32,283 nucleotides of DNA from a virus: positions 1 through 32,283 of IMG/VR virus record IMGVR_UViG_3300009124_000056; one strand, written 5' to 3'. The notes beneath the pieces are model-generated. The model did no database searches, had not been told where the DNA came from, and saw only the letters and a list, made by a program, of their open reading frames with translations. A program made the translations under genes and the position numbers. This document shows positions 794 to 32,283 of the stretch, in pieces (position 1 is the first letter of the stretch; each line of letters opens with the position of its first letter).

Positions 794-1435
794 ATGACCA
801 AATACGTTGCTTACTATCGTGTCTCAACCAAACGCCAAGGCCAATCCGGCCTTGGCCTCGAAGCCCAGCAGGCGCTGGTTGCGCCATACGCTGACGGCAT
901 CATCCACTCATTTACTGAGGTTGAGAGCGGCAAGGTTGACGCCCGGCCACAGCTTGACGCCGCCCTCGCGCTTTGCCGCGAGACTGGCGCGTCCATCCTC
1001 ATCGCCAAGATTGACCGCCTGTCGCGTGACGCCGCGTTTCTGCTGACACTGCGTAAGGCTGGCGTCGACATCATCGCCGCCGACATGCCCAACGCTGGCA
1101 CGTTAGAGTTCGGCGTCCGGGCTGTTGTCGCACAGCATGAACGCGAAGAGATCAGCAAGCGCACCAAGGACGCCCTCGCAGCCGCCAAGGCGCGCGGCGT
1201 CAAGCTGGGCTGCCCCAACCCACGCGCCGGCGGTTTGGCATCAGGTGCCGCCCGGCGCGAAAAGACACAGCGCGTTGCCGCCAAGGCGATGCCAATCATT
1301 ACTGCCCTGCGTGACGCCGGTGCGTCACTACGGGCTGTAGCCAGCAAGTTGAATGAGGCTGGCATACCATCCGCTATGGGTGGTGCGTGGCACGCAACCA
1401 GCGTGCGTAACTTAATCAATGCAATGGGAGACTAA
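794..1435 (+). CDS. Small serine recombinase (resolvase/invertase family) with a C-terminal DNA-binding region
   Basis: N-terminal YYRVSTKRQ catalytic-serine motif, IAKIDRLSRD, and EREEISKRTKDAL. It is 213 aa, and AAGGGAAA lies upstream of the ATG. Confidence 0.9.
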   Translation: MTKYVAYYRVSTKRQGQSGLGLEAQQALVAPYADGIIHSFTEVESGKVDARPQLDAALALCRETGASILIAKIDRLSRDAAFLLTLRKAGVDIIAADMPNAGTLEFGVRAVVAQHEREEISKRTKDALAAAKARGVKLGCPNPRAGGLASGAARREKTQRVAAKAMPIITALRDAGASLRAVASKLNEAGIPSAMGGAWHATSVRNLINAMGD

Positions 1436-1558: not shown

Positions 1559-1768
1559 ATGAAGATCACTAGACTGAAAAGAGGGTATCGCATCAATATG
1601 TCTGACACAGAATATGAGTTGTATTTGCGTTTTGTTGATGCTGGCAGTTGCGATATGGCGAATATGGATGATGATCCAACCGATCCAATTGATAGATATT
1701 TTAATCGTATCAATGGAACGGAAAAAATTTCAGATTGGTCAACAATAGCTGATGACAGGAGAAACTAA
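1559..1768 (+). CDS. Hypothetical protein (69 aa) in an AT-rich block
   Basis: Track ORF. Its stop overlaps the next start (TAATG). I recognise no motif. Confidence 0.55.
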   Translation: MKITRLKRGYRINMSDTEYELYLRFVDAGSCDMANMDDDPTDPIDRYFNRINGTEKISDWSTIADDRRN

Positions 1769-2724
1769 TGGTTGGAAAACTTACACCAGATTGGATGCTG
1801 TCGGCATCCCGCATACCAGTGTTGCTGAACGCATCACCGTATCAAACGCAGAATGATCTGTTGGCTGAGATGATCAAGATCGATGAGGGCGGCGAGCCAA
1901 CGCGCATACCGCAGAATGAACTGATGGCGTGGGGCGACAGGCTGGAACCCATCGTGTTGACCGAAGCCGCAGCCCGGCTTGGCCTGACCAACGTCGAGTT
2001 GGATTTCACTGAGGCGGTCAAGCACGATCACTTGCCACTGGCTGCGTCGCTTGACGGCGTCGGCTGTGGCAAGGGCGACATCATCGCGGATCTAAACAAG
2101 GGCATCTACACGCCGTTTGCATCCCGCGTCGACATCTCTGGCCTTGGTTGCCTTGAGGCCAAGACGACACAGGCAATGGCTGAAGACTTGCCGCCCAATC
2201 ATCGCGGCGTGTTTCAATTGCAGGCACAGATGATGTGTACCGGGTACAAGTGGGGCGCTGTCTGTGTACTGTACCGGGGCAGTGAGTTACGCATATTTGT
2301 TTATGAGGCTGACCTTGAATTGCAGATGCGTATCATGCAGGCGGTGCATGACTTTGAGCAGCGCCGCAAAAACAAAGACTGGTATGAGCCAGTCAGCGCC
2401 GAAGATGCGGCAACCGCATACAGCCGGGTGGACGATGGCGCACCGCCCATCGAACTCGCCAGCGAGCAGGCGCGTGACTGGCTGAACCAGCTAGTCGTCG
2501 CCAAGCGCAACAAGGCCGTGGCTGAACAGGACATCGATGAGGCAAGCGCCGCAATTATGCAGATTATGGGCAGCCACAAAGAGGCCGTCGGCACAGTGGG
2601 CAATCAAATGATCAAGGTCACTTGGCCGGAGCGCCGGTTCAAGGCACAGCCAGAGCGCATCGTCCCGGCCAAGCCTGAGACTGTCGCACGTCAGAAAACA
2701 TTAACCATAAAGGAACTAAACTAA
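1768..2724 (+). CDS. YqaJ-type (lambda-exonuclease-like) PD-(D/E)XK exonuclease with a C-terminal extension of about 100 aa
   Basis: SRIPVLLNASPYQT, NELMAWGDRLEP, ASLDG, GCLEAKTT (E-x-K) and QLQAQMMCTGY occur in the order typical of YqaJ proteins. GGAGAA lies upstream of the ATG. Confidence 0.8.
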   Translation: MVGKLTPDWMLSASRIPVLLNASPYQTQNDLLAEMIKIDEGGEPTRIPQNELMAWGDRLEPIVLTEAAARLGLTNVELDFTEAVKHDHLPLAASLDGVGCGKGDIIADLNKGIYTPFASRVDISGLGCLEAKTTQAMAEDLPPNHRGVFQLQAQMMCTGYKWGAVCVLYRGSELRIFVYEADLELQMRIMQAVHDFEQRRKNKDWYEPVSAEDAATAYSRVDDGAPPIELASEQARDWLNQLVVAKRNKAVAEQDIDEASAAIMQIMGSHKEAVGTVGNQMIKVTWPERRFKAQPERIVPAKPETVARQKTLTIKELN

Positions 2725-2936
2725 TGGCTCGCCCTCGCGATTACAGCGCCACTGAGCGCGTCTACGATGCGATAGTGTCATACACTGCCAACAATCCCTA
2801 CCCGCCGTCACAGAGCGAAATAGCGGCGATGGTGGGCAGGAGCCGCACGGCAGTCGTCAAACAGCTTGAGCATCTGGTGGCTGCTGGCCGCATTGAGATA
2901 CCGCTAGGCCGCCATCGCGGCATCAAGGTGCTGTGA
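2724..2936 (+). CDS. LexA N-terminal DNA-binding-domain-only protein (winged HTH, 70 aa); no hinge or peptidase domain
   Basis: YPPSQSEIAAMVGRSRTAVVKQLEHLVAAGRIEIPLGRHRGIKVL aligns by eye with E. coli LexA [46 protein letters not shown]. The ORF stops where the LexA DNA-binding domain ends. Confidence 0.75.
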   Translation: MARPRDYSATERVYDAIVSYTANNPYPPSQSEIAAMVGRSRTAVVKQLEHLVAAGRIEIPLGRHRGIKVL

Positions 2937-3079
2937 TGGGTGTGCCAACGAAAGAGGAAATCAAGCAGGCGTTGCAGATACCCAAGGCGACGCCGCCGCT
3001 TGACAGCCTTGGCCGGACGAACAGGCCAACCACCACAAAAAATATGATGCTAAAGATAAAAGAGAAGGGGCAGCGCTAG
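2936..3079 (+). CDS. Possible 47-aa protein, last ORF of the plus-strand operon
   Basis: The ATG overlaps the preceding TGA (GTGATGG). My translation is MGVPTKEEIKQALQIPKATPPLDSLGRTNRPTTTKNMMLKIKEKGQR. The stop lies inside the terminator hairpin. Confidence 0.35.
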   Translation: MGVPTKEEIKQALQIPKATPPLDSLGRTNRPTTTKNMMLKIKEKGQR

Positions 3080-3093
3080 CTGCCCTTTTTCTT
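3067..3093. terminator. Bidirectional intrinsic terminator at the convergence of the plus-strand and minus-strand units
   Basis: GGGCAGC-gcta-GCTGCCC (3068..3085) is followed by TTTTTCTT on the plus strand and preceded by an A-rich run that gives a U-tract on the minus strand. Both convergent ORFs stop within it. Confidence 0.8.
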
Positions 3094-3444
3094 ATTCTGG
3101 AAACTTTCCAGCGCACCGGCACCAAAGTAAAAGCCCAAGATAATCATCATCGCGTAGTTAATACTGAACTGTTCCATCACCTTGGTCACAGCGTCCGGGT
3201 CACCCGTGCCAATGATGGTCATAGTCAACACGATGATGTAGCTGGCTAAGAACGTGAAGCCAAACATCAGGGCAAGGTAACGCTGCGCCAATTTGAATGG
3301 CGCGTATGCGTTCATCAAATCTATCCGCGCCTTGCTCTTGGCCGCGATCTCTTCCTCTGTTGATGTATGCATGTCGTCAATCAGCTTGATGCCTTGTTTG
3401 ATGACACTGTCAGATCCTAAGATTTTTCCTAATACGCCTAGCAT
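3076..3444 (-). CDS. Holin-like membrane protein
   Basis: It has at least two hydrophobic helices (YLALMFGFTFLASYIIVLTMTII and NYAMMIILGFYFGAGAL) and a charged C-terminus (NKKKGS). It lies immediately downstream of the endolysin. Confidence 0.6.
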   Translation of the reverse strand: MLGVLGKILGSDSVIKQGIKLIDDMHTSTEEEIAAKSKARIDLMNAYAPFKLAQRYLALMFGFTFLASYIIVLTMTIIGTGDPDAVTKVMEQFSINYAMMIILGFYFGAGALESFQNKKKGS

Positions 3445-5443: not shown

Positions 5444-5908
5444 CTAAGCGGCTAAGTTTAGTTCATCAGATATGCGCCAAGCATTGCGCCATTCTCTTGT
5501 CTGCGGTAACTGTTCCTTGCGGCATATTACCATAGTCGGGCGGTTGCCCTCATCCCAATTCTGCCAGACGTGCTGTGGCACATCCTTCTGAATTAGGTAT
5601 TCAATCGCTTCTTCTTCAGTCATCGGGCCAACAGGCTCTGTCTCGTGCAACAGATAGCCGCGTGTGTGCTTTTTAAAGTCAGGCTGCGCTTCGTCCTTTG
5701 CCAGTTCCCAATACACCCACACAGGCGGCAGTATACCGCCCTGCAATGCACACGCCATCCAGTTAGGGTCAGGCACAAGTATTTTAGCGCACTCATCAAT
5801 GCTGTCCTCAAAGACAACACGATAGTCTGACTGCACACCGTCTAGGTTTTCCTTTGCCCAGCACAGACGGTCAAACAGGTGAGTGCCTTTGAACTCTGGT
5901 GTCTGCAT
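5444..5908 (-). CDS. Hypothetical protein (154 aa) with a C-terminal TREWRNAW motif
   Basis: Track ORF. Its start uses the same GGAGACTTAGCGTAATG junction as the fibre-tip paralogs. Confidence 0.7.
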   Translation of the reverse strand: MQTPEFKGTHLFDRLCWAKENLDGVQSDYRVVFEDSIDECAKILVPDPNWMACALQGGILPPVWVYWELAKDEAQPDFKKHTRGYLLHETEPVGPMTEEEAIEYLIQKDVPQHVWQNWDEGNRPTMVICRKEQLPQTREWRNAWRISDELNLAA

Positions 5909-6291
5909 TACGCTAAGTCTCCTTGAACTTGATTATTTAAATTGTCGTAATCTACAATAGTGCCACCATCGTTACAGGTGTTAATTCTGTATTCCCCTGT
6001 GGTTTGTAGAGCATTACTCCCAAGATGTGAAAACAAATTAGAACCGTTTACAGCACAACTAGAAGCAATAGCATAACGAATATCGTTCATGTTATTTGTA
6101 AAAAGCGTATCTGTTCTCCCGTCACCATCATCAGATAATGAACTTACGTTGAAACTTCCCTGTATCGTATGTGTATTACTATCTATTGTTGCGTTAAGCC
6201 AACTTTTACAAGTGCCTTTAACCACATACTGCGTATCAAGTGACCCAGCGGTGCTGTGTTCCATCGTATCTGCTATAATTTTACCAGCCAT
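5908..6291 (-). CDS. Small fibre-tip / receptor-binding-like protein, paralog 3 (127 aa, ends GDLA)
   Basis: N-terminal IIADTM, then NVSSLSDDGDGRTDTLFTNNMNDIRYA, then C-terminal QGDLA. It is visibly AT-richer than the flanks. Confidence 0.65.
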   Translation of the reverse strand: MAGKIIADTMEHSTAGSLDTQYVVKGTCKSWLNATIDSNTHTIQGSFNVSSLSDDGDGRTDTLFTNNMNDIRYAIASSCAVNGSNLFSHLGSNALQTTGEYRINTCNDGGTIVDYDNLNNQVQGDLA

Positions 6292-6713
6292 TATGCTAAG
6301 TCTCCGTGTACTGACATACCAAAATAAATAAGGTCTCTCGCGCTACTATCACTTGCGCGGTTATCAGTGTGAAAATCTGATGATGTCATCTGACGGCTAT
6401 TTGTCGTTGACCTTCCCCACATTCCAAAAATTCCCCCAGCTTCATCTTGTGCTTGTCCAGCACCAGACACAGCATAAAATGAATTAGAAAAACCATTTGT
6501 AAATGTTATTTTGGTAACGCCAGTAGCAATATCTGCGGTTGAAGCAATGTTGAACGCATCTAATGTTGGATGGTCTGTTGCGTCTGCGTCAATGGATGCC
6601 CACGCCTTTGCCAACCCCTGTTCCAAAGACTGTGTAGCAGTAGCACCAACAGTCACAGTGATGTCTTTGGTGGTGGTCTTGCCTGTGAGGGTATCTACTT
6701 TTATCTCACTCAT
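6291..6713 (-). CDS. Small fibre-tip / receptor-binding-like protein, paralog 2 (140 aa, ends GDLA)
   Basis: MSEIKVDTLTG, LAKAWASID, NIASTADIATGVTKITFTNGFSNSFYA, then C-terminal HGDLA. Confidence 0.65.
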   Translation of the reverse strand: MSEIKVDTLTGKTTTKDITVTVGATATQSLEQGLAKAWASIDADATDHPTLDAFNIASTADIATGVTKITFTNGFSNSFYAVSGAGQAQDEAGGIFGMWGRSTTNSRQMTSSDFHTDNRASDSSARDLIYFGMSVHGDLA

Positions 6714-25712: not shown

Positions 25713-25927
25713 CAATCATTCTCCGGGCTAAAAATAATCGTCGTGACGTTCTCATACTCGCTGCTGTTGATCTCCAACATTACGCCCTCGCACGATGTGC
25801 AGACGACTTGCTCACTGCGGTCAGCCACCCGACCGTGGGTGTCAGAGCCACACCAGCCGCATATGACCTCAGTTTTAAAAAACCTGACCGACTGAAAATC
25901 CTTAATGTTAATCACTTCCGCTGTCAT
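25712..25927 (-). CDS. Small zinc-ribbon-like protein (71 aa) between terS and terL
   Basis: CGWC..(x21)..CTSC gives four Cys in two CxxC pairs. I prefer the ATG at 25927 to the TTG at 25936. Confidence 0.6.
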   Translation of the reverse strand: MTAEVINIKDFQSVRFFKTEVICGWCGSDTHGRVADRSEQVVCTSCEGVMLEINSSEYENVTTIIFSPEND

Positions 25928-26318
25928 CGCCGTCAATCTCCACTATGCTAGTCGTTGGCCCGGTAATGTTAATGCCGATCATGCTGGGCTTCTGATCCCC
26001 GGCATTCGGCTCCAGCAAGCCGCGATGCTTCGCCAGTAGTCGCAACGCCGACAACTTGTCGTGCATTTCAACCTCAATGCTGTTGCCAAACTGGTTGGGC
26101 GTGACCTTGACCTTCTTGACAGAGCGCTTGGCGCGATCCGACAACTGGTCACTGGGCGTCAGCGTCACACGCCCCATATCGTCCCACTGGATAACGTCAG
26201 TCGCCTCACCGGCACCAATGGCCTCTAACTCTTGCACAACAGCCTCGCGCCTAGCCTCATCGCTTGAGGCCAGTGCGGCGCGTTGCTGTCTAATCGTTGG
26301 CGTTTTGTTTCCTGACAT
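25908..26318 (-). CDS. terS: Terminase small subunit
   Basis: VEMHDKLSALRLLAKHRGLLEP matches the C-terminal signature I recall for Terminase_2-type small subunits. The ATG at 26318 has GGAG 7 nt upstream. Confidence 0.7.
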   Translation of the reverse strand: MSGNKTPTIRQQRAALASSDEARREAVVQELEAIGAGEATDVIQWDDMGRVTLTPSDQLSDRAKRSVKKVKVTPNQFGNSIEVEMHDKLSALRLLAKHRGLLEPNAGDQKPSMIGINITGPTTSIVEIDGDDSGSD

Positions 26319-26571
26319 GCAGGCACTCCGATCCTGTTGCGGCATAGCCAGCCAGATCCACCCAGCTATCCTGATGATCCGGCGTCGCCGACAGCCGCGC
26401 CAATTTGACCCCGGCCATCATCATCGCCACATGCTCCGGCTGAAACTCAATGCCAACCAGCGCCGTCCATATAACGGCGATGCGCTCGTGATTGTCCCAA
26501 ATACTACCATACTCTTCGCCGCGATCAGCTACGGTTTCTTTTGCGGCATCCAATAATTCATTGCGGTTCAT
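26290..26571 (-). CDS. Conserved phage protein (93 aa)
   Basis: AKETVADRGEEYGS..VAMMMAGVKLARL..DSWVDLAGYAA is a pattern I recall from a widespread phage DUF. The function is unknown. Confidence 0.6.
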   Translation of the reverse strand: MNRNELLDAAKETVADRGEEYGSIWDNHERIAVIWTALVGIEFQPEHVAMMMAGVKLARLSATPDHQDSWVDLAGYAATGSECLHVRKQNAND

Positions 26572-26741
26572 TCGCTTTCACCCTTTACGTCAATAATCTT
26601 TAGCTTGCAGGCGCAACACTCGTATTCAACTTTATGCGCCCATTCCCCTTTTAATTCAATCGTGCATCGGCAGCGGGGGCATTGACCGTTGTTCAATCGC
26701 CGCTGGAACGTGCCGTCGCCCTCATAAATGTGATCGTTCAT
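26568..26741 (-). CDS. Small zinc-ribbon protein (57 aa)
   Basis: This is the C-terminal part of track ORF 26568..26927. The ATG at 26741 has GGAG 6 nt upstream. MNDHIYEGDGTFQRRLNNGQCPRCRC..CCACKL. Confidence 0.55.
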   Translation of the reverse strand: MNDHIYEGDGTFQRRLNNGQCPRCRCTIELKGEWAHKVEYECCACKLKIIDVKGESE

Positions 26742-26976
26742 GCAAAACTCCATCGCCACCACAACGATAGCACAACGTCTTCTCGATGCAACCGTAGCCG
26801 TCTGGCTGCGTGATCCAACCGTCATCGCAGTCGGTGCAGGGTTTTGTGCGAAAATTTTGTGTGACACCCCCATATACGATAGTAGCGGGGCGGGGGGCAA
26901 GGGGTGCCTTTTTTTGTATGCACACACACAAATCTTGCGCTGTGCAAAAGCATACGTCGGTCTGTTCGTTGCACAT
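26722..26976 (-). CDS. Cys-rich protein with DnaJ-type CxxCxGxG zinc-finger repeats (84 aa)
   Basis: CTDCDDGW..(x13)..CYRCGGDG, plus an N-terminal CxxxxxxCxCxxxxxCxC cluster. The ATG overlaps the upstream TGA. Confidence 0.6.
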   Translation of the reverse strand: MCNEQTDVCFCTAQDLCVCIQKKAPLAPRPATIVYGGVTQNFRTKPCTDCDDGWITQPDGYGCIEKTLCYRCGGDGVLHERSHL

Positions 26977-27635
26977 CACAGCATGCCCCCTGCCACGTCG
27001 TACAGCGACGGCACCCCTGCCCTTCGCTCAATGGCTTGATCACACACGTTCAGCGTGGCTGCCCTCACGTCCGCCGCAGTAAAGCCAGCGACAGCCAGAC
27101 GCCGGGCGTGTGCTATCTCGTTATCATACAGCCGCACTTGCCCGGTGGCCTGCTGCACTGCCCGGATGTAGGCGTGAGCGATGGCGCTGGCTTCTGGTTG
27201 ATCGGTTGTGTGGGTGTTTAGTTGTCCATCCCCCATACCCCCTATTACATTTGCGGGTGCGTCATCATCGTCCTCGCGCACCTGCAATGGCTTGGCAATG
27301 TGTATCTCTTCGTATGTGGGCAACGGCTCGTCGCCATCCCACAGCACCTGATAGCGGTTGCTGTGCCATCCGCTGGCTGTCTCTTGATAGTCCTTGGGCG
27401 ATAGCTGCCGCACATACTTGCGCCGCTTCAGCACCTTCATAGCGTTATGTATCGTCACACGCTCAGCGTAGCCTGTGATCTCACACAGCGTCTGCATTGC
27501 AGGCCAGCACACGCCAGCCCTGTTGGCGAAGATGCACAGCGCACCAAGCACCCGCAACTCGCGTTCTTTCAACTGCCGGTCACCCGCTGCCCTCGCTGGC
27601 ATCACCGACCACTTCCTAAAATGGTATGTCGTCAT
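26976..27635 (-). CDS. Winged-HTH DNA-binding protein, putative replication initiator or organiser
   Basis: RELRVLGALCIFANRAGVCWPAMQTLCEITGYAERVTIHNAMKVLKRRKYV is a typical wHTH. It lies in the replication module. The ATG at 27635 overlaps the last 20 nt of the upstream gene. Confidence 0.55.
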   Translation of the reverse strand: MTTYHFRKWSVMPARAAGDRQLKERELRVLGALCIFANRAGVCWPAMQTLCEITGYAERVTIHNAMKVLKRRKYVRQLSPKDYQETASGWHSNRYQVLWDGDEPLPTYEEIHIAKPLQVREDDDDAPANVIGGMGDGQLNTHTTDQPEASAIAHAYIRAVQQATGQVRLYDNEIAHARRLAVAGFTAADVRAATLNVCDQAIERRAGVPSLYDVAGGML

Positions 27636-28173
27636 CAATCAAATCCTTTGTTGCTATGCTCTCAACTGCCGCACCCGGCCACATCTGTTTCGCCACATCC
27701 GTTATCTGACCGGCCTTGTCCTTGCGCCACTTGCCAATGATCACGGCCACCTCTTCGATGCTGTACACCACCATATCCCTGTTGTCCGCTGCCACCTTGC
27801 CAGCCTCATAACCATTGCGCGTGATCGCCAGCACCTTGCCATCATCCATCGGCGCTTCCCAATACTCGCCAGTCAGCGGCTTATGCCCCGCAGCCTTGGC
27901 CGCATTCACCATCGCCTCGACGCCTCGCAATGTGACCTCAACCTGATGCTCAACGTCTTGCATCTCATCAATGGCCTTGTTCAGCAAATCCATCTGCGCC
28001 TCGAACCTACCTCGCAGCGCCTCATCCACCAGCCACGGTAAACGATCCACGCCCCATTCAGCTTCGACTGCCCTGACCCTGCGATCATACTCATGCAGCG
28101 CATCCTGCTGACGACGCATCACTGCCTGACTAGGCGCATAGTGTTGCTTTGTTGGTTTCCTAACTCTTGCCAT
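27616..28173 (-). CDS. Replication-module protein of unknown fold (185 aa) ending in the SSB C-terminal tip motif DDDIPF
   Basis: Track ORF. I re-translated the last 8 codons by hand as TTG ATT GAT GAC GAC ATA CCA TTT TAG, which gives LIDDDIPF then stop. Confidence 0.75.
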   Translation of the reverse strand: MARVRKPTKQHYAPSQAVMRRQQDALHEYDRRVRAVEAEWGVDRLPWLVDEALRGRFEAQMDLLNKAIDEMQDVEHQVEVTLRGVEAMVNAAKAAGHKPLTGEYWEAPMDDGKVLAITRNGYEAGKVAADNRDMVVYSIEEVAVIIGKWRKDKAGQITDVAKQMWPGAAVESIATKDLIDDDIPF

Positions 28174-28197
28174 TACCTATACCCTCATGCCGGGGAC

Positions 28198-28301
28198 TAT
28201 GAGAAGAGATCCCCCTATAGTGGGGATCTCATCTCCGTCATATCCGGTCACCTGTCCGATTAGTATGAGATTAGTATGAGATTTACAGTTTATCATCTCA
28301 C
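28198..28301. promoter_or_regulatory. Repeat-rich intergenic element: perfect 9-bp hairpin, tandem 11-mers and five ATGAGAT-like 7-mers (candidate origin, operator or processing site)
   Basis: Hairpin GAGATCCCC-ctatagt-GGGGATCTC at 28206..28230. GATTAGTATGA occurs 2.4 times at 28258..28283. ATGAGAT-like motifs are direct at 28199, 28265 and 28276 and inverted at 28226 and 28295. Confidence 0.5.
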
Positions 28302-30110
28302 ATTCTCGCCTAACTCTTTGTTAATCCACACTTTGCCGCCATCATTGACGACAACGCCCTTCAATTGCAGTGCCGCACGGTCATCTGACCGCTTTCTGGA
28401 TGTCATATCTGGGCATTTTTGCTTGTGCAGATCGTTCCATCTGTCCGCTGACATCTGCGTCACCTCTGCATCAATCAGGCCATTCTGCAACGCCTGCAAC
28501 GCCAGCAATTGACCCGGCGTCAGCTTTGCACCGCGTTTCTTTTCTGCCGCCTCTACAGGCAATAGAACCGCACTGCTGCCATCAATCAATGCGACTGGCG
28601 TCAACTCATACTGCTCATCAGCTATTGGCTCTGCGTCCTTTTGCTTTTCCATTTTCAGCGTCACGCGCCCCTCACTGCTTGACAGTGCCAACACAGTATC
28701 GCTCAGACCCAACAGGGAACTGCTGCCTCGCATGCCCCTCGCAGCGTCCTTGCCAGAGTGATGAACGGCCAACACGGCACAGTCGGCGTGTCGCTGTATG
28801 ATGCCGCACATCTCGCCGAACTGACCCATAGCCGTAGCGTCGTTCTCATCTGACCCAGTCGCCGCCAGTGTCCGGGCAACCGTGTCAATGACAATCAGGC
28901 TGAAATCTTGCTTGAAGCTGTCGATAGTCCGCAGCAGCTTTTCCAGATCCGGCGGGTCAAGCAGCTTAACCGCCATCGGCAACACATAGAATGGCGCGTC
29001 GCCGTGGCTGTCGTTGTATTCTTGCCACGCTCTGATCCTGATCCCCAGACCACCCACACCCTCTGCTGCTATGTAAAGCACAGCGTTTTGCTTTGTAGCC
29101 CGGCTGTGCCACTGCCGCCCATACGCCACTGACAGCGCCCAGTCGATTGACAGGAACGATTTACCAATGCCCGGCGCACCATACAGCACAGAAAAGCCGT
29201 GCTTGGTCAGGACGCCATCCAGCAGCCATTCGACCGGCGGCATGTTCTTGAGGTATTCAATGCCAAAAGTCTCAAACACATCCGGCCTGTCAACCGGCTC
29301 CGCCTTGTCCGGCTCAGTCTCAATAGCTGGCGTCTCTTTGACTAGCGCCATCAATTCAGCCGGGCTGTGATCATTCAGCCAGTCGAACACGTCTTGCTTG
29401 TCAGTCAGCCCCGGCAGGCTCACGCGCTTGATGCGCTTCGCCAGCGGGTATAGCTGACTGACCACCACATCAGCGTGTGCCTGCCCGGCGTCGTCTGCGT
29501 CAGGCACGACAATGACATTGCGCCCCTCAAAATACTTATTGATCTCAGGCTTCCAGTTCTTTGCGCCGCCGTGGTTCGTCGTCGCCACCACGCCCAGATC
29601 ACTCAACCTGTCGGCACATTTTTCGCCCTCGACCACAAACAGTGGCGCGTCCGGGTTCAACATTATATCCGGCAGGTTGTATGGCACCGGCGTCACGCCA
29701 TCCATATTATACAGCCAGCCACCATTGCCATCAGGCCGCCGCTGTCTGAACGTCTTGGGCTCGAAGCGCTGCACCTGAAACACAACCTCACCGTCCTGAT
29801 CGATGTAGTCATACTGCCGCGCCAGATACTTGGCCGGTGTCAGCGTCTGCTGCACTCGCTTGGCTATGCCAAACTTCTTTTCCAATACGTCTGGGATGTT
29901 GCCATTGATGCTGGCAGGCTCGAACATGCGAACCAAGTCGATCACGCCGCCACCCACGCCGTTCTCATGATCAAACCAAGTGCCGCGCTTGCTCACACTA
30001 AATGAGCCGTGTGTCCCCCAGCGTAATTCATTCCCTTTTGACAGCTTGGCGTTCGGCTCACCCAAATAGTGACGTGCCACCTGTTCTATGTATGCTGCTA
30101 TATTTGTCAT
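28293..30110 (-). CDS. Bifunctional primase-helicase (TOPRIM domain plus RecA/DnaB-like NTPase)
   Basis: TOPRIM motifs FVVEGEKCAD and VIVVPDADDAGQ. Walker A YGAPGIGKS and Walker B LIVIDTVART. The ATG at 30110 has GAGGG 6 nt upstream. Confidence 0.85.
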   Translation of the reverse strand: MTNIAAYIEQVARHYLGEPNAKLSKGNELRWGTHGSFSVSKRGTWFDHENGVGGGVIDLVRMFEPASINGNIPDVLEKKFGIAKRVQQTLTPAKYLARQYDYIDQDGEVVFQVQRFEPKTFRQRRPDGNGGWLYNMDGVTPVPYNLPDIMLNPDAPLFVVEGEKCADRLSDLGVVATTNHGGAKNWKPEINKYFEGRNVIVVPDADDAGQAHADVVVSQLYPLAKRIKRVSLPGLTDKQDVFDWLNDHSPAELMALVKETPAIETEPDKAEPVDRPDVFETFGIEYLKNMPPVEWLLDGVLTKHGFSVLYGAPGIGKSFLSIDWALSVAYGRQWHSRATKQNAVLYIAAEGVGGLGIRIRAWQEYNDSHGDAPFYVLPMAVKLLDPPDLEKLLRTIDSFKQDFSLIVIDTVARTLAATGSDENDATAMGQFGEMCGIIQRHADCAVLAVHHSGKDAARGMRGSSSLLGLSDTVLALSSSEGRVTLKMEKQKDAEPIADEQYELTPVALIDGSSAVLLPVEAAEKKRGAKLTPGQLLALQALQNGLIDAEVTQMSADRWNDLHKQKCPDMTSRKRSDDRAALQLKGVVVNDGGKVWINKELGENVR

Positions 30111-30145
30111 CACTTACCCTCACTCCCTCATCCACCCGATAGACA

Positions 30146-30189: not shown

Positions 30190-30819
30190 TCAGAACAAGT
30201 CTGCGCCTGCTGCTGCGGGTGGCACAGGCGGCGCTGGTTGCGCTGCTGCGGGTTCTGCTGGCGATGACGCGCCTTGCGTCATGCCCTCTGGACGCTCAAT
30301 CCAGCCGCTGATCGACCAGTTAGGCGAGCGGAAAGTCTGCGTACCTTGCGCCTTGGTTTCGATCTGGATGCGGTCACTGCCAGTGATCTCCACGACTGGC
30401 AGTTTGCCGGGGTTGTCGGCCTTGCCAGCCAAGAATGCGTCGTGCAGATCATTCATCTGATTACGCACAATCTTGCTGCTGCTGCTCATCTCACGCAGGC
30501 CGATCTCTTTGTTGTAGAGCCGGATGCGGAACCCCTCTTTGTGATCCGGCGATGGCTGTTGTGGCATTGGCTCGCCAACCTGCACCATACGAAAGTCAGG
30601 GCCAGATGTGGTAAACGCAATGAAGCCAACCTCAATCGCGTCGATGTCCATCACCACCTTGATGGGTGTTTCCATCTCAGTCTCGCTCTTTTCCCAAGTG
30701 CCATCAGGCGCTTGATGCCGATCCTGCCGGACGAATGAACCGTCCTTGGCTGAGTATTTAACAATCGGCAAGAAATCCCCGCCACCCGAACCTGTAGTCT
30801 CTGTAAAACCTAAAGCCAT
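30190..30819 (-). CDS. Putative ssDNA-binding-like protein (209 aa) with a Pro/Ala-rich linker and a C-terminal ..GADLF tip
   Basis: This is the internal ATG of track ORF 30190..30987, with GGAGAA 5 nt upstream, which avoids overlap with 30845..31258. The tail SSPAEPAAAQPAPPVPPAAAGADLF resembles a disordered SSB tail with an acidic/aromatic tip. The fold assignment is inference. Confidence 0.4.
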   Translation of the reverse strand: MALGFTETTGSGGGDFLPIVKYSAKDGSFVRQDRHQAPDGTWEKSETEMETPIKVVMDIDAIEVGFIAFTTSGPDFRMVQVGEPMPQQPSPDHKEGFRIRLYNKEIGLREMSSSSKIVRNQMNDLHDAFLAGKADNPGKLPVVEITGSDRIQIETKAQGTQTFRSPNWSISGWIERPEGMTQGASSPAEPAAAQPAPPVPPAAAGADLF

Positions 30820-30844
30820 TTCATTTCTCCATTGAACTTTAGAA

Positions 30845-31258
30845 CTACCGCAAAACGGTTGCGGCACCGACTGGGAAATAGGCACACACGTCTGCGTCTT
30901 GGGCATCGCCCCGGTCAGATCTGCCGCCCTTCCCCAATTCATAATCGCCAGAGAAATCAAACCTGACGATATTGTCTGTGTAAACATTTAATAGATAGCT
31001 GGGCAGGCCAGTGTGTTGCGTCAGCAGTCTCGCCTGCAACACTTTTGACAGGCTTACCATCGCCGTTGGGTATTTGTACATCGTGCATGTGCGGTGCTTG
31101 ACCTCAACAAACGCCTTCGGCTGGCCGTCCTTCGACACTAAAAAGTCCAGCCGGTATTGCAGCGGCAGCTTGTAAAAGTCGTAGCCGTGCGCGGCGAATG
31201 CCTCAGCCAGCGCGTGTTCTTTGACCCGGTCAGCGTCTGTCTCATACATCTTACGCAT
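30845..31258 (-). CDS. PD-(D/E)XK nuclease, possibly T7 endonuclease-I-like
   Basis: YRLDFLVSKDGQPKAFVEVKHR compares with T7 endonuclease I YTPDFLLPNGIFVETKG (from memory). It is 137 aa. Confidence 0.5.
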   Translation of the reverse strand: MRKMYETDADRVKEHALAEAFAAHGYDFYKLPLQYRLDFLVSKDGQPKAFVEVKHRTCTMYKYPTAMVSLSKVLQARLLTQHTGLPSYLLNVYTDNIVRFDFSGDYELGKGGRSDRGDAQDADVCAYFPVGAATVLR

Positions 31259-32042: not shown

Positions 32043-32283
32043 CAGCCAAATGCTCCCGCACAATCATCATCGCCGTCACTTGGTCACACTCGACAGCGTA
32101 GCGCCAGTCGTATTGCTCCGCTATGTCACCGGCTGGCACGTTGCCATCCATATTGACTACTGCCGCCACCGGGAAGCGCCACCGTATTGGCAGGCGGTCA
32201 TATTTATAGACTAGCAGTGGTAGTTTGTTGGTTGCCAGCGCACTGTCGCACGTCTGCACCCACCACTGCGGCTGTATGCCGTA
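32035..32283 (-). CDS. C-terminal part of the Hjc/RecU-like nuclease that starts at 236 across the circular junction
   Basis: The frame is continuous through the 50-bp overlap (position 2 equals 32235). The sequence ..WWVQTCDSALATNKLPLLVYKYDRLPIRWRF.. runs to the stop at 32035. Confidence 0.7.
   Translation of the reverse strand, partial: YGIQPQWWVQTCDSALATNKLPLLVYKYDRLPIRWRFPVAAVVNMDGNVPAGDIAEQYDWRYAVECDQVTAMMIVREHLADA
32234..32283. repeat. Second copy of the 50-bp terminal overlap (identical to 1..50)
   Basis: Direct comparison of the two window ends. Confidence 0.95.

Follow-up and report, generated by a model that had tools for sequence, protein, structure and literature searches.

A Large Phage Protein Family Carries an SSB-Like C-Terminal Tip beside a Primase-Helicase Gene

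Introduction

The C-terminal tip of bacterial SSB (single-stranded DNA-binding protein) serves as a hub for more than a dozen replication, repair, and recombination enzymes, and in E. coli the protein ends ...DFDDDIPF. The SSB C-terminal tip (SSB-Ct) is known on cellular and mobile-element-encoded SSBs, and host-like tips occur on the SSBs of phages and plasmids. Why, then, should a phage protein that bears no recognizable resemblance to SSB end in the same six residues? The protein, referred to here as the tip protein, is encoded in a 32,283-nucleotide stretch of viral DNA (IMG/VR record IMGVR_UViG_3300009124_000056, positions 1 to 32,283; "the window" denotes the whole of this stretch). It was first noticed by a reader who had only the letters of the window and their translations, and whose account we call the sequence-only reading.

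What such a tip can do in a bacterial cell is well described. The proteins that the SSB-Ct docks include the chi subunit, by which the clamp loader is tied to SSB, and also PriA, DnaG, RecQ, exonuclease I (ExoI), RecO, and others (PMC5872125, PMC10164576, PMC10018359). The clamp loader is thus joined to SSB through chi, and its connection to the host helicase is made by tau (PMC11139829).

Results

The Tip and the Gene That Carries It

27616..28173, minus strand: tip-protein gene, an open reading frame (ORF) of 185 amino acids with an ATG start and a TAG stop
27619..27681, minus strand: codons of the flexible tail, residues 165-185, which carries the tip (predicted local distance difference test score, pLDDT, 52-55)
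27619..27636, minus strand: codons of the C-terminal hexapeptide D-D-D-I-P-F, a short linear motif like the SSB-Ct
28293..30113, minus strand: primase-helicase of 606 amino acids (RecA-type helicase domain AAA_25, E=1e-39; weakly Toprim-like N-terminal part; PHROG DNA primase/helicase)
26976..27635, minus strand: winged helix-turn-helix (wHTH) initiator-like gene (HTH_36; PHROG replication initiation protein, O-like or DnaD-like)

Translation of the window gives a protein that begins MARVRKPTKQHY and finishes ATKDLIDDDIPF, followed by TAG, and its homologues align from residue 1. The last ten residues are KDLIDDDIPF (the final eight being L-I-D-D-D-I-P-F), the hexapeptide is encoded by GAT GAC GAC ATA CCA TTT from 27636 to 27619, and the stop codon occupies 27618..27616. 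The coordinates and tail given in the sequence-only reading are thereby confirmed, and matches to Pfam and PHROG place the gene where that reading had put it, between the primase-helicase and the wHTH initiator-like gene. The tail has the features that define the SSB-Ct motif class: a position at the extreme C terminus, a hydrophobic residue followed by Pro-Phe-COOH, two to three preceding acidic residues, and a hydrophobic residue at -7. Among the 404 stop-to-stop ORFs of at least 40 amino acids in the window, the tip protein is the only one that ends in [ILVM]P[FW].

Conservation of the Tip and Extent of the Family

Public metagenomes hold 173 close homologues of the tip protein, and a profile search at E≤1e-3 returned 1069 cluster representatives (50% identity); judged by these searches, the tip protein is a member of a large phage family hitherto without annotation. 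Look-ups of the family's clusters returned "hypothetical protein" names only, and none of the homologues recovered in a large search with a 74-sequence profile has a Pfam domain, is fused to another protein, or bears an informative name. Cultured relatives are few: tblastn of the tip protein recovered just two, Roseobacter phages CRP-821 and CRP-822 (33% identity), a megablast search of cultured phages with the module came back empty, and searches seeded with two distant representatives reached no cultured phage. Family members are recognized by three features that the tip protein shares: a WGVDRL-type motif between helices 1 and 2 (W40, G41, and L45 are invariant across 74 sequences), a length of about 185-200 residues, and a position directly downstream of an AAA_25-type primase-helicase.

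All except 2 of 120 close homologues end in [ILV]PF, the commonest tails being NLDDEIPF (39), ELNDEIPF (32), and DLDDEIPF (8). These common tails match the tail of alpha-proteobacterial SSBs (LDDEIPF or DLDDEIPF), which has been described in Rhodobacter sphaeroides and in thousands of assemblies from the alpha-proteobacteria (PMC13490951). When 48 homologues are aligned, D181, P184, and F185 never vary, L179 shows at least 90% conservation, and the 15 residues ahead of the tip are variable and rich in insertions and deletions. Because invariant residues follow so variable a linker, we regard the tip as a short linear motif on a flexible tether.

Conservation of the tip in homologues, a check that the sequence-only reading had called for, holds to about 30% identity. 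We assembled 144 full-length representatives of 50%-identity clusters, with approximately 30-50% identity to the tip protein, and 94 of these end in [ILVM]P[FWLI]; within the tipped group the proline at -2 is present in 94/94, the aspartate at -5 in 88/94, the phenylalanine at -1 in 84/94, and a leucine at -7 in 39/94. Roughly two thirds of the distant representatives fit the ending [DN]-D-[ED]-[ILV]-P-[FW]. A strict form of the tip, [DEN][DE]x[ILVM]P[FW], occurs in 102 of the 14,536 ORFs of 163 related loci (ORFs at these loci were called by a first-start heuristic), and 101 of the 102 are family members. The remaining ORF encodes an SSB of the T7 type in Roseobacter phage CRP-821. A chance origin of the tip is excluded.

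Profiles and Predicted Fold

Sequence and profile searches of the tip protein gave no match in PHROG and, at cut-offs of E≤1 or 10, none in Pfam, NCBIfam, or the sequences of the PDB. More specifically, there was no profile match to SSBs of the T7 gp2.5/Enc34 type (PF21265, PF10991), no Pfam or PHROG family at E<0.07, helicase loaders (DnaC-DnaI, lambda P, or DnaD-like) included, and no Pfam or PHROG match to the small terminase subunit (TerS); no nucleotide-binding motif was seen in the sequence. An AlphaFold2 model built with 48 homologues (m6d4d04a35e19; mean pLDDT 77.9, predicted template modelling score, pTM, 0.57) consists of a disordered basic arm (residues 1-15), long helices (16-40, 51-70, and 74-94), and a small alpha/beta domain (104-164) that has merely three short strands and no oligonucleotide/oligosaccharide-binding (OB) barrel. 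Past residue 164 the model is of low confidence and has no secondary structure, as expected for a docking motif. When the model was compared with the PDB by Foldseek, the best match had E=0.66 and no OB-fold protein was found; in BFVD the matches were uncharacterized proteins of uncultured phages, plus one labelled "Terminase small subunit," a label that we regard as a positional misannotation.

The tip protein thus has the acidic D-D-D-I-P-F tip on a disordered tail that is typical of an OB-fold SSB (PF00436 type), and its model has nothing like the five-stranded OB barrel. The sequence-only reading could recognize no OB-fold signature and allowed that the tail would be ordinary if the protein proved to be a bona fide SSB homologue; negative profile searches, a model that is helical and alpha/beta, and the Foldseek comparison all point the other way. 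By profile and predicted structure, the tip protein is not an OB-fold SSB.

Linkage to the Primase-Helicase in a Phage without a Polymerase

28174..28292, minus strand: spacer between the helicase and tip-protein genes, a candidate origin or operator

Two sets of loci define the neighborhood of the family. The first consists of 80 IMG/VR loci whose family proteins are 52-79% identical to the tip protein, and in these the gene order is p209-like protein (see below), primase-helicase, family protein, wHTH. The second consists of 80 loci seeded from distant, partly tipless members in genomes of 38-68 kb; here the gene directly upstream encodes a fusion of Prim-Pol and AAA_25 domains of about 700 residues, or occasionally a DUF3987 protein, and the wHTH gene is not conserved downstream. 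Since the wHTH gene is not kept in the distant set, the stable partner of the family gene is the helicase. An AAA_25-type helicase ORF ends no more than 600 bp upstream on the same strand in 102/119 assessable loci, with a median gap of 128 bp, and the linkage is obligate-looking.

The spacer contains an 11-nucleotide direct repeat present twice (28258-28279), a palindrome with 14-nucleotide arms (28201-28235), and three copies of TCTCATA within 84 bp; a hairpin flagged at 28211-28226 is the center of the palindrome and lacks a T tract. The spacers of relatives, including that of CRP-821 (locus L001), likewise hold repeats, a palindrome of inverted repeat words, and further repeats, and the repeat word is specific to the lineage: ATCACA[CT]A, CCCACAC, or ATCGCAC, and TTATACA in CRP-821. 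A scan for sigma-70 promoters between 26800 and 28500 found none. In its repeats the spacer would resemble an iteron-type origin, or an operator, for a lineage-specific DNA-binding protein, and the wHTH protein is a candidate for that role.

Since the two ends of the window repeat (bases 1-50 are exactly bases 32234-32283, an assembly overlap), we take the genome to be complete: it is circularly closed, or terminally redundant, and about 32,233 bp long. Neither a DNA polymerase nor a canonical SSB was found among the window ORFs scanned, the few left unscanned all being shorter than about 175 amino acids. The absence of a polymerase gene, asserted in the sequence-only reading, therefore holds for the complete genome to within that limit.

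Overlap with the Downstream wHTH Gene

27616..27635, minus strand: overlap of 20 nucleotides between the tip-protein and wHTH genes; the wHTH ATG (27635-27633) lies within the D-D codons of the tip

A motif encoded where two genes overlap might be conserved for the sake of the second gene. Upstream starts available to the wHTH frame in the window are the ATG at 27635 and a TTG at 27638. Across relatives, the peptide W-S-V is kept in the downstream frame at 39/41 distinct junctions by means of nine synonymous codon combinations, and no in-frame start precedes it other than ATGs located 20 and/or 17 nucleotides before the end of the tip-gene stop codon. These ATGs arise from (A/G)AT-GA(x), the N/D-D-E/D codons of the tip itself, and independent gene callers placed the identical 20-nucleotide overlap in three relatives (L002, L164, and L165). 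Starting the wHTH protein farther downstream, at GTG 27605 or ATG 27602, would remove the overlap; we rejected these starts, since W-S-V upstream of them is conserved with synonymous variation and several lineages have Leu, Val, Ala, or Thr in place of the Met. The dual constraint noted in the sequence-only reading, which had seen that the tip codons overlap the first codons of the next gene, is borne out by the retention of W-S-V. An AAGGA derived from the K-[ED]-L codons ahead of the tip (K-D in the window) lies approximately 8 nucleotides upstream of the embedded ATG and, by its placement, suggests that translation of the tip protein and the initiator is coupled.

It is nevertheless the tip that governs this stretch, to judge from the comparison of sequences. 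Synonymous changes are seen in the tip codons (ATA/ATC, CCA/CCC/CCT, TTT/TTC), the wHTH protein changes freely at its residues 2-7 across relatives (TTYHF, MKSPF, MKSLS), and distant lineages keep the tip even without an overlapping downstream gene. For these reasons, conservation of the tip is not a by-product of the overlap.

In two of the relatives named above, the downstream ORF is short and has no HTH_36 match (L164, 10560-10745; L165, 10348-10635), and its start still lies 20 nucleotides before the end of the tip-gene stop. Because the overlap persists there, the embedded ATG appears to be conserved independently of the gene that follows.

A Companion Protein, p209

30190..30819, minus strand: p209, 209 amino acids, with a beta-rich core, a Pro/Ala-rich disordered linker, and an acidic-Phe tip, GADLF

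The 265-residue ORF at 30190..30987 is over-extended: homologues and their alignment identify the internal ATG at 30819 as the true start of p209, which abolishes an apparent overlap with the upstream phrog_7141/YraN-like gene (30845-31258). The predicted structure has a beta-rich core with pLDDT >85 followed by a disordered linker of about 30 residues. Profile searches of p209 found no match in Pfam, PHROG, NCBIfam, or the PDB, and Foldseek against the PDB gave weak, non-significant matches (E>0.1), several of them OB or SSB proteins. From its modeled, SSB-like architecture, p209 is possibly a phage protein that binds or anneals single-stranded DNA (ssDNA). We considered and set aside the idea that p209 is a T7 gp2.5-type SSB, as it has no BLAST similarity to CRP-821 gp8 and no Pfam or PDB profile match.

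Members of the p209 family occur together with the tip-protein family in 102 loci. Their endings are always acidic-aromatic (GADLF, GSDLF, DDIF, DDFG, EALF, or EEF, depending on the lineage), and they change in step with the type of tail on the tip protein. At several loci where the motif of the family protein is set back from its C terminus (a subgroup described in the Discussion), the p209-like protein also ends ...DFG, and Phe is terminal in neither protein. The D-L-F at the end of p209 is also the ending of the clamp-binding consensus QLDLF, perhaps by coincidence.

Discussion

We suggest that the tip protein is a replisome adaptor, one that by mimicry of the SSB tip would recruit the host's SSB-interacting proteins to the helicase or origin of the phage. 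Given the sequence evidence, we put the probability of this reading at about 0.5. The folded part of the protein would bind a phage component (the AAA_25 primase-helicase, the wHTH initiator at the iteron region, and/or p209), and the flexible tail would expose a copy of the tip of host SSB, ...L-[DN]-D-[DE]-I-P-F-COOH. Since the genome supplies a helicase-primase and neither a polymerase nor a canonical SSB, the tip could be expected to capture the host's SSB-interacting proteins at the fork or origin of the phage. Chi, of the Pol III (DNA polymerase III holoenzyme) clamp-loader complex, is the likeliest target, and PriA, RNase HI, and others are possible. A foreign helicase would presumably have no contact with tau; chi-psi, and hence Pol III*, might instead be tethered through the tip, replacing the tau-DnaB link. 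Recruitment of Pol III or the primosome, or competition with SSB for its partners, as proposed in the sequence-only reading, would fit both the conservation of the tip and the gene neighborhood.

Several observations weigh against this reading. A strictly C-terminal tip is not universal in the family: approximately one third of the distant representatives end in D-[DE]-[IL]-P plus 4-10 residues, in PxFG(G)A, or without the motif. A non-terminal subgroup (e.g., P0147, P0163, P0202; L093, L111, L124, L140) has endings such as DELPDELMAAG, GDELPEGLRA, and PxFG(G)A. Canonical SSB-Ct pockets require the carboxylate of the terminal Phe, so family members that lack a terminal Phe cannot act in the same way. 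The CRP-821 homologue of the tip protein, gp6 (33% identity), ends EGLFQHD without any tip. The folded core is acidic, with a net charge of -5 and -1 for its two domains, and it lacks a feature that would reveal a partner; given a pTM of 0.57, the arrangement of these domains in the AlphaFold2 model is itself uncertain. The counted loci include close relatives and are not phylogenetically independent, and the comparison of the tip with a host SSB tail is an indirect one.

CRP-821 also shows where else the tip can reside. Its module is syntenic with that of the window, and two of its genes are of concern here:

L001 (PV211011), 2727-3338 and 5866-6444: genes for gp8 and gp6, gp8 being an SSB of the T7 gp2.5/Enc34 type that matches PF21265 and PF10991 and ends DLDDALPF

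A host-type tip is thus present once per module in each case, on the SSB in CRP-821 and on the helicase-adjacent protein in the lineage of the window. We do not extend this to a general rule by which the tip is found on the SSB or on the family protein and never on both; elsewhere, tipless members have no tip-bearing ORF within 10 kb.

Other explanations of the tip deserve consideration. The acidic, Phe-terminal tails of T7 gp2.5 and gp4 contact T7 DNA polymerase, and by analogy the tail of the tip protein could serve a contact internal to the phage, with the primase-helicase or p209, its likeness to the host SSB-Ct being convergent or secondary. Tight linkage to the helicase gene, the covariation of the p209 tips with tail type, and the non-terminal or divergent variants (DELPDxxxx, PxFGGA, DIFAA) are all consistent with such a contact. 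However, the commonest tails match bacterial SSB tails over 6-8 residues, including the Leu/Phe at -7, an identity that is hard to explain other than by selection for host binding pockets, and the phage has no polymerase of the kind that the T7 tails contact; we consider a purely internal role unlikely. The tip protein could also be a decoy which, if abundant, titrates ExoI, RecJ, RecQ, PriA, Ung, and chi away from host SSB, and thereby shuts down host replication and repair, protects phage ssDNA, or blunts nuclease-dependent defense. The evidence of the tip serves this idea as well as it does the adaptor, the core of the protein has no recognizable DNA-binding or enzymatic domain, and there is a phage example in Bas52_0087, an SSB-like protein with two OB folds and the ending FDDDIPF, which has been proposed to compete with SbcB/ExoI and which triggers DRT10 (bioRxiv 10.64898/2026.04.29.721553). 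Yet a decoy needs no fixed position, and this gene is locked between helicase and initiator, next to a candidate origin, in lineages that range from 30-96% identity; its stop is putatively coupled translationally to the initiator gene; and a conserved folded domain of 160 residues with an invariant WGVDRL motif exceeds what a decoy peptide would need. We think it improbable that titration is the function of the protein.

Could the tip simply be doing the ordinary job of an SSB on an unconventional, non-OB ssDNA-binding protein? Deinococcus DdrB offers a parallel, being a cellular ssDNA-annealing protein that is non-OB, has a disordered C terminus, and was once described with an SSB-like C-terminal motif, although that motif is no more than "purported" and radioresistance does not depend on it (PMC3834827). 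The tip protein shares with DdrB the non-OB character and the SSB-like C terminus, and has no sequence or fold relationship to it. The SSB-like arrangement, in which a flexible tail joins a folded core to an acidic tip, the basic N-terminal arm, and a genome with no canonical SSB would all suit an ssDNA-binding role; the acidic core and a linker of only about 20 residues would not, p209 is the better candidate with its beta-rich core and 30-residue Pro/Ala linker, and in CRP-821 a T7-type SSB coexists with a family member, all of which makes this explanation distinctly unlikely. Finally, the protein might be TerS or another packaging or regulatory protein, with a tail unrelated to replication. 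One BFVD neighbor carries the terminase label, and in many loci the family gene lies just upstream of packaging genes, but TerS is encoded by a gene of its own in the window (25908..26345) and in its relatives, and the conserved neighbor is the helicase, not the large terminase subunit (TerL); we consider a packaging role highly improbable.

The replisome adaptor that we favor may be compared with better known proteins. Like the OB-fold SSBs of bacteria, phages, and plasmids, the tip protein has the same or nearly the same motif at the end of a flexible tail, it is encoded in a replication module, and its sequence suggests that it would use the same host docking pockets; unlike them, it has neither an OB fold nor an SSB profile, its linker is short, its core is acidic and built of helices, and there is no indication of ssDNA binding. 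T7 gp2.5-type proteins organize the replisome by means of acidic, Phe-terminal tails, and the tip protein resembles SSBs of the T7 gp2.5/Enc34 type in being a phage replication-module protein with such a tail, whereas its fold and family are different. Phage helicase loaders recruit the host helicase. As with those loaders (lambda P, P2 B, SPP1 G39P, and DnaC/DnaI-like proteins), we are dealing with a small accessory protein encoded beside initiator and helicase genes, but one that has no profile similarity to them, that accompanies a phage-encoded helicase, and whose motif points to other host factors. A further comparison is with TrfA of plasmid RK2, a replication initiator with a beta-clamp-binding motif. 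There, too, a replication protein of a mobile element bears a short motif copied from the host replisome and recruits host machinery; the TrfA motif, however, is the clamp-binding QLxLF, its target is the beta clamp rather than SSB-interacting proteins, and it belongs to another family.

In the literature we found no description of an SSB-Ct on a non-SSB phage replication protein, or of this family, subscription journals being incompletely covered. The motif class itself is known; what appears to be new is putative mimicry of the SSB tip on a very widespread protein family that is not SSB, and specialists may be surprised both by the carrier of the tip and by the breadth of the family. If the tip is functional, motif mimicry would allow phages that bear a helicase and lack a polymerase to capture the host polymerase, and more than 1000 sequence clusters of "hypothetical proteins" from environmental phages would acquire a role. 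A functional tip would also make the protein a natural, portable display of the SSB-Ct with which to probe or inhibit the SSB interactome, and a candidate trigger or target of defense systems that monitor SSB-linked processes. More speculatively, widespread polymerase-less phages may carry a "plug-in" replisome composed of a primase-helicase, an SSB-like p209, and an adaptor that tethers chi-psi to the helicase or origin, in which case this would be the first natural example of SSB-Ct mimicry on a non-SSB scaffold that hijacks the bacterial replisome. We advance this broader proposal only tentatively and consider it rather doubtful. The GADLF tip of p209 might be a second hijacking motif, for instance one that is clamp-binding-like.

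Other Features of the Genome

25908..26345: TerS (phrog_51)

The remaining genes are those of a T7-like podovirus and include portal, capsid, tail tube A and B, internal virion proteins, TerS, and TerL, together with a methyltransferase, a serine recombinase, a YqaJ/RecE-type exonuclease, and small PD-(D/E)XK nucleases. Three of the relatives (L002, L164, and L165) have a TerS of their own (Terminase_2 or Sf6_terminase).

As to the host, metagenome-assembled genomes (MAGs) of Alphaproteobacteria and Candidatus Puniceispirillaceae have contigs of this group among their binned sequences (P0318, P0330), a placement that is no proof of the host. A scan of genomes for prophage copies returned a single contig, L083 (JAYOXR010000017.1), in a Candidatus Nitrosopumilus MAG; this archaeal assignment is very likely a binning artefact.

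The serine recombinase/invertase (794-1435, plus strand) and the YqaJ/lambda-exonuclease-type nuclease (1768-2724, plus strand) lie on the strand opposite to all other genes, and the nuclease has a C-terminal extension of 150 residues without assignment. Near these two genes, relatives add a small ORF for a LexA_DNA_bind-like repressor, which hints at a temperate or recombination module. An ORF of 119 amino acids at 26568-26927 (minus strand), which has no family match, contains zinc-ribbon-like cysteine pairs (CPRC...CCAC), and its homologues are found in 73/82 loci of the first set, between the wHTH gene and the DUF6378/TerS genes.

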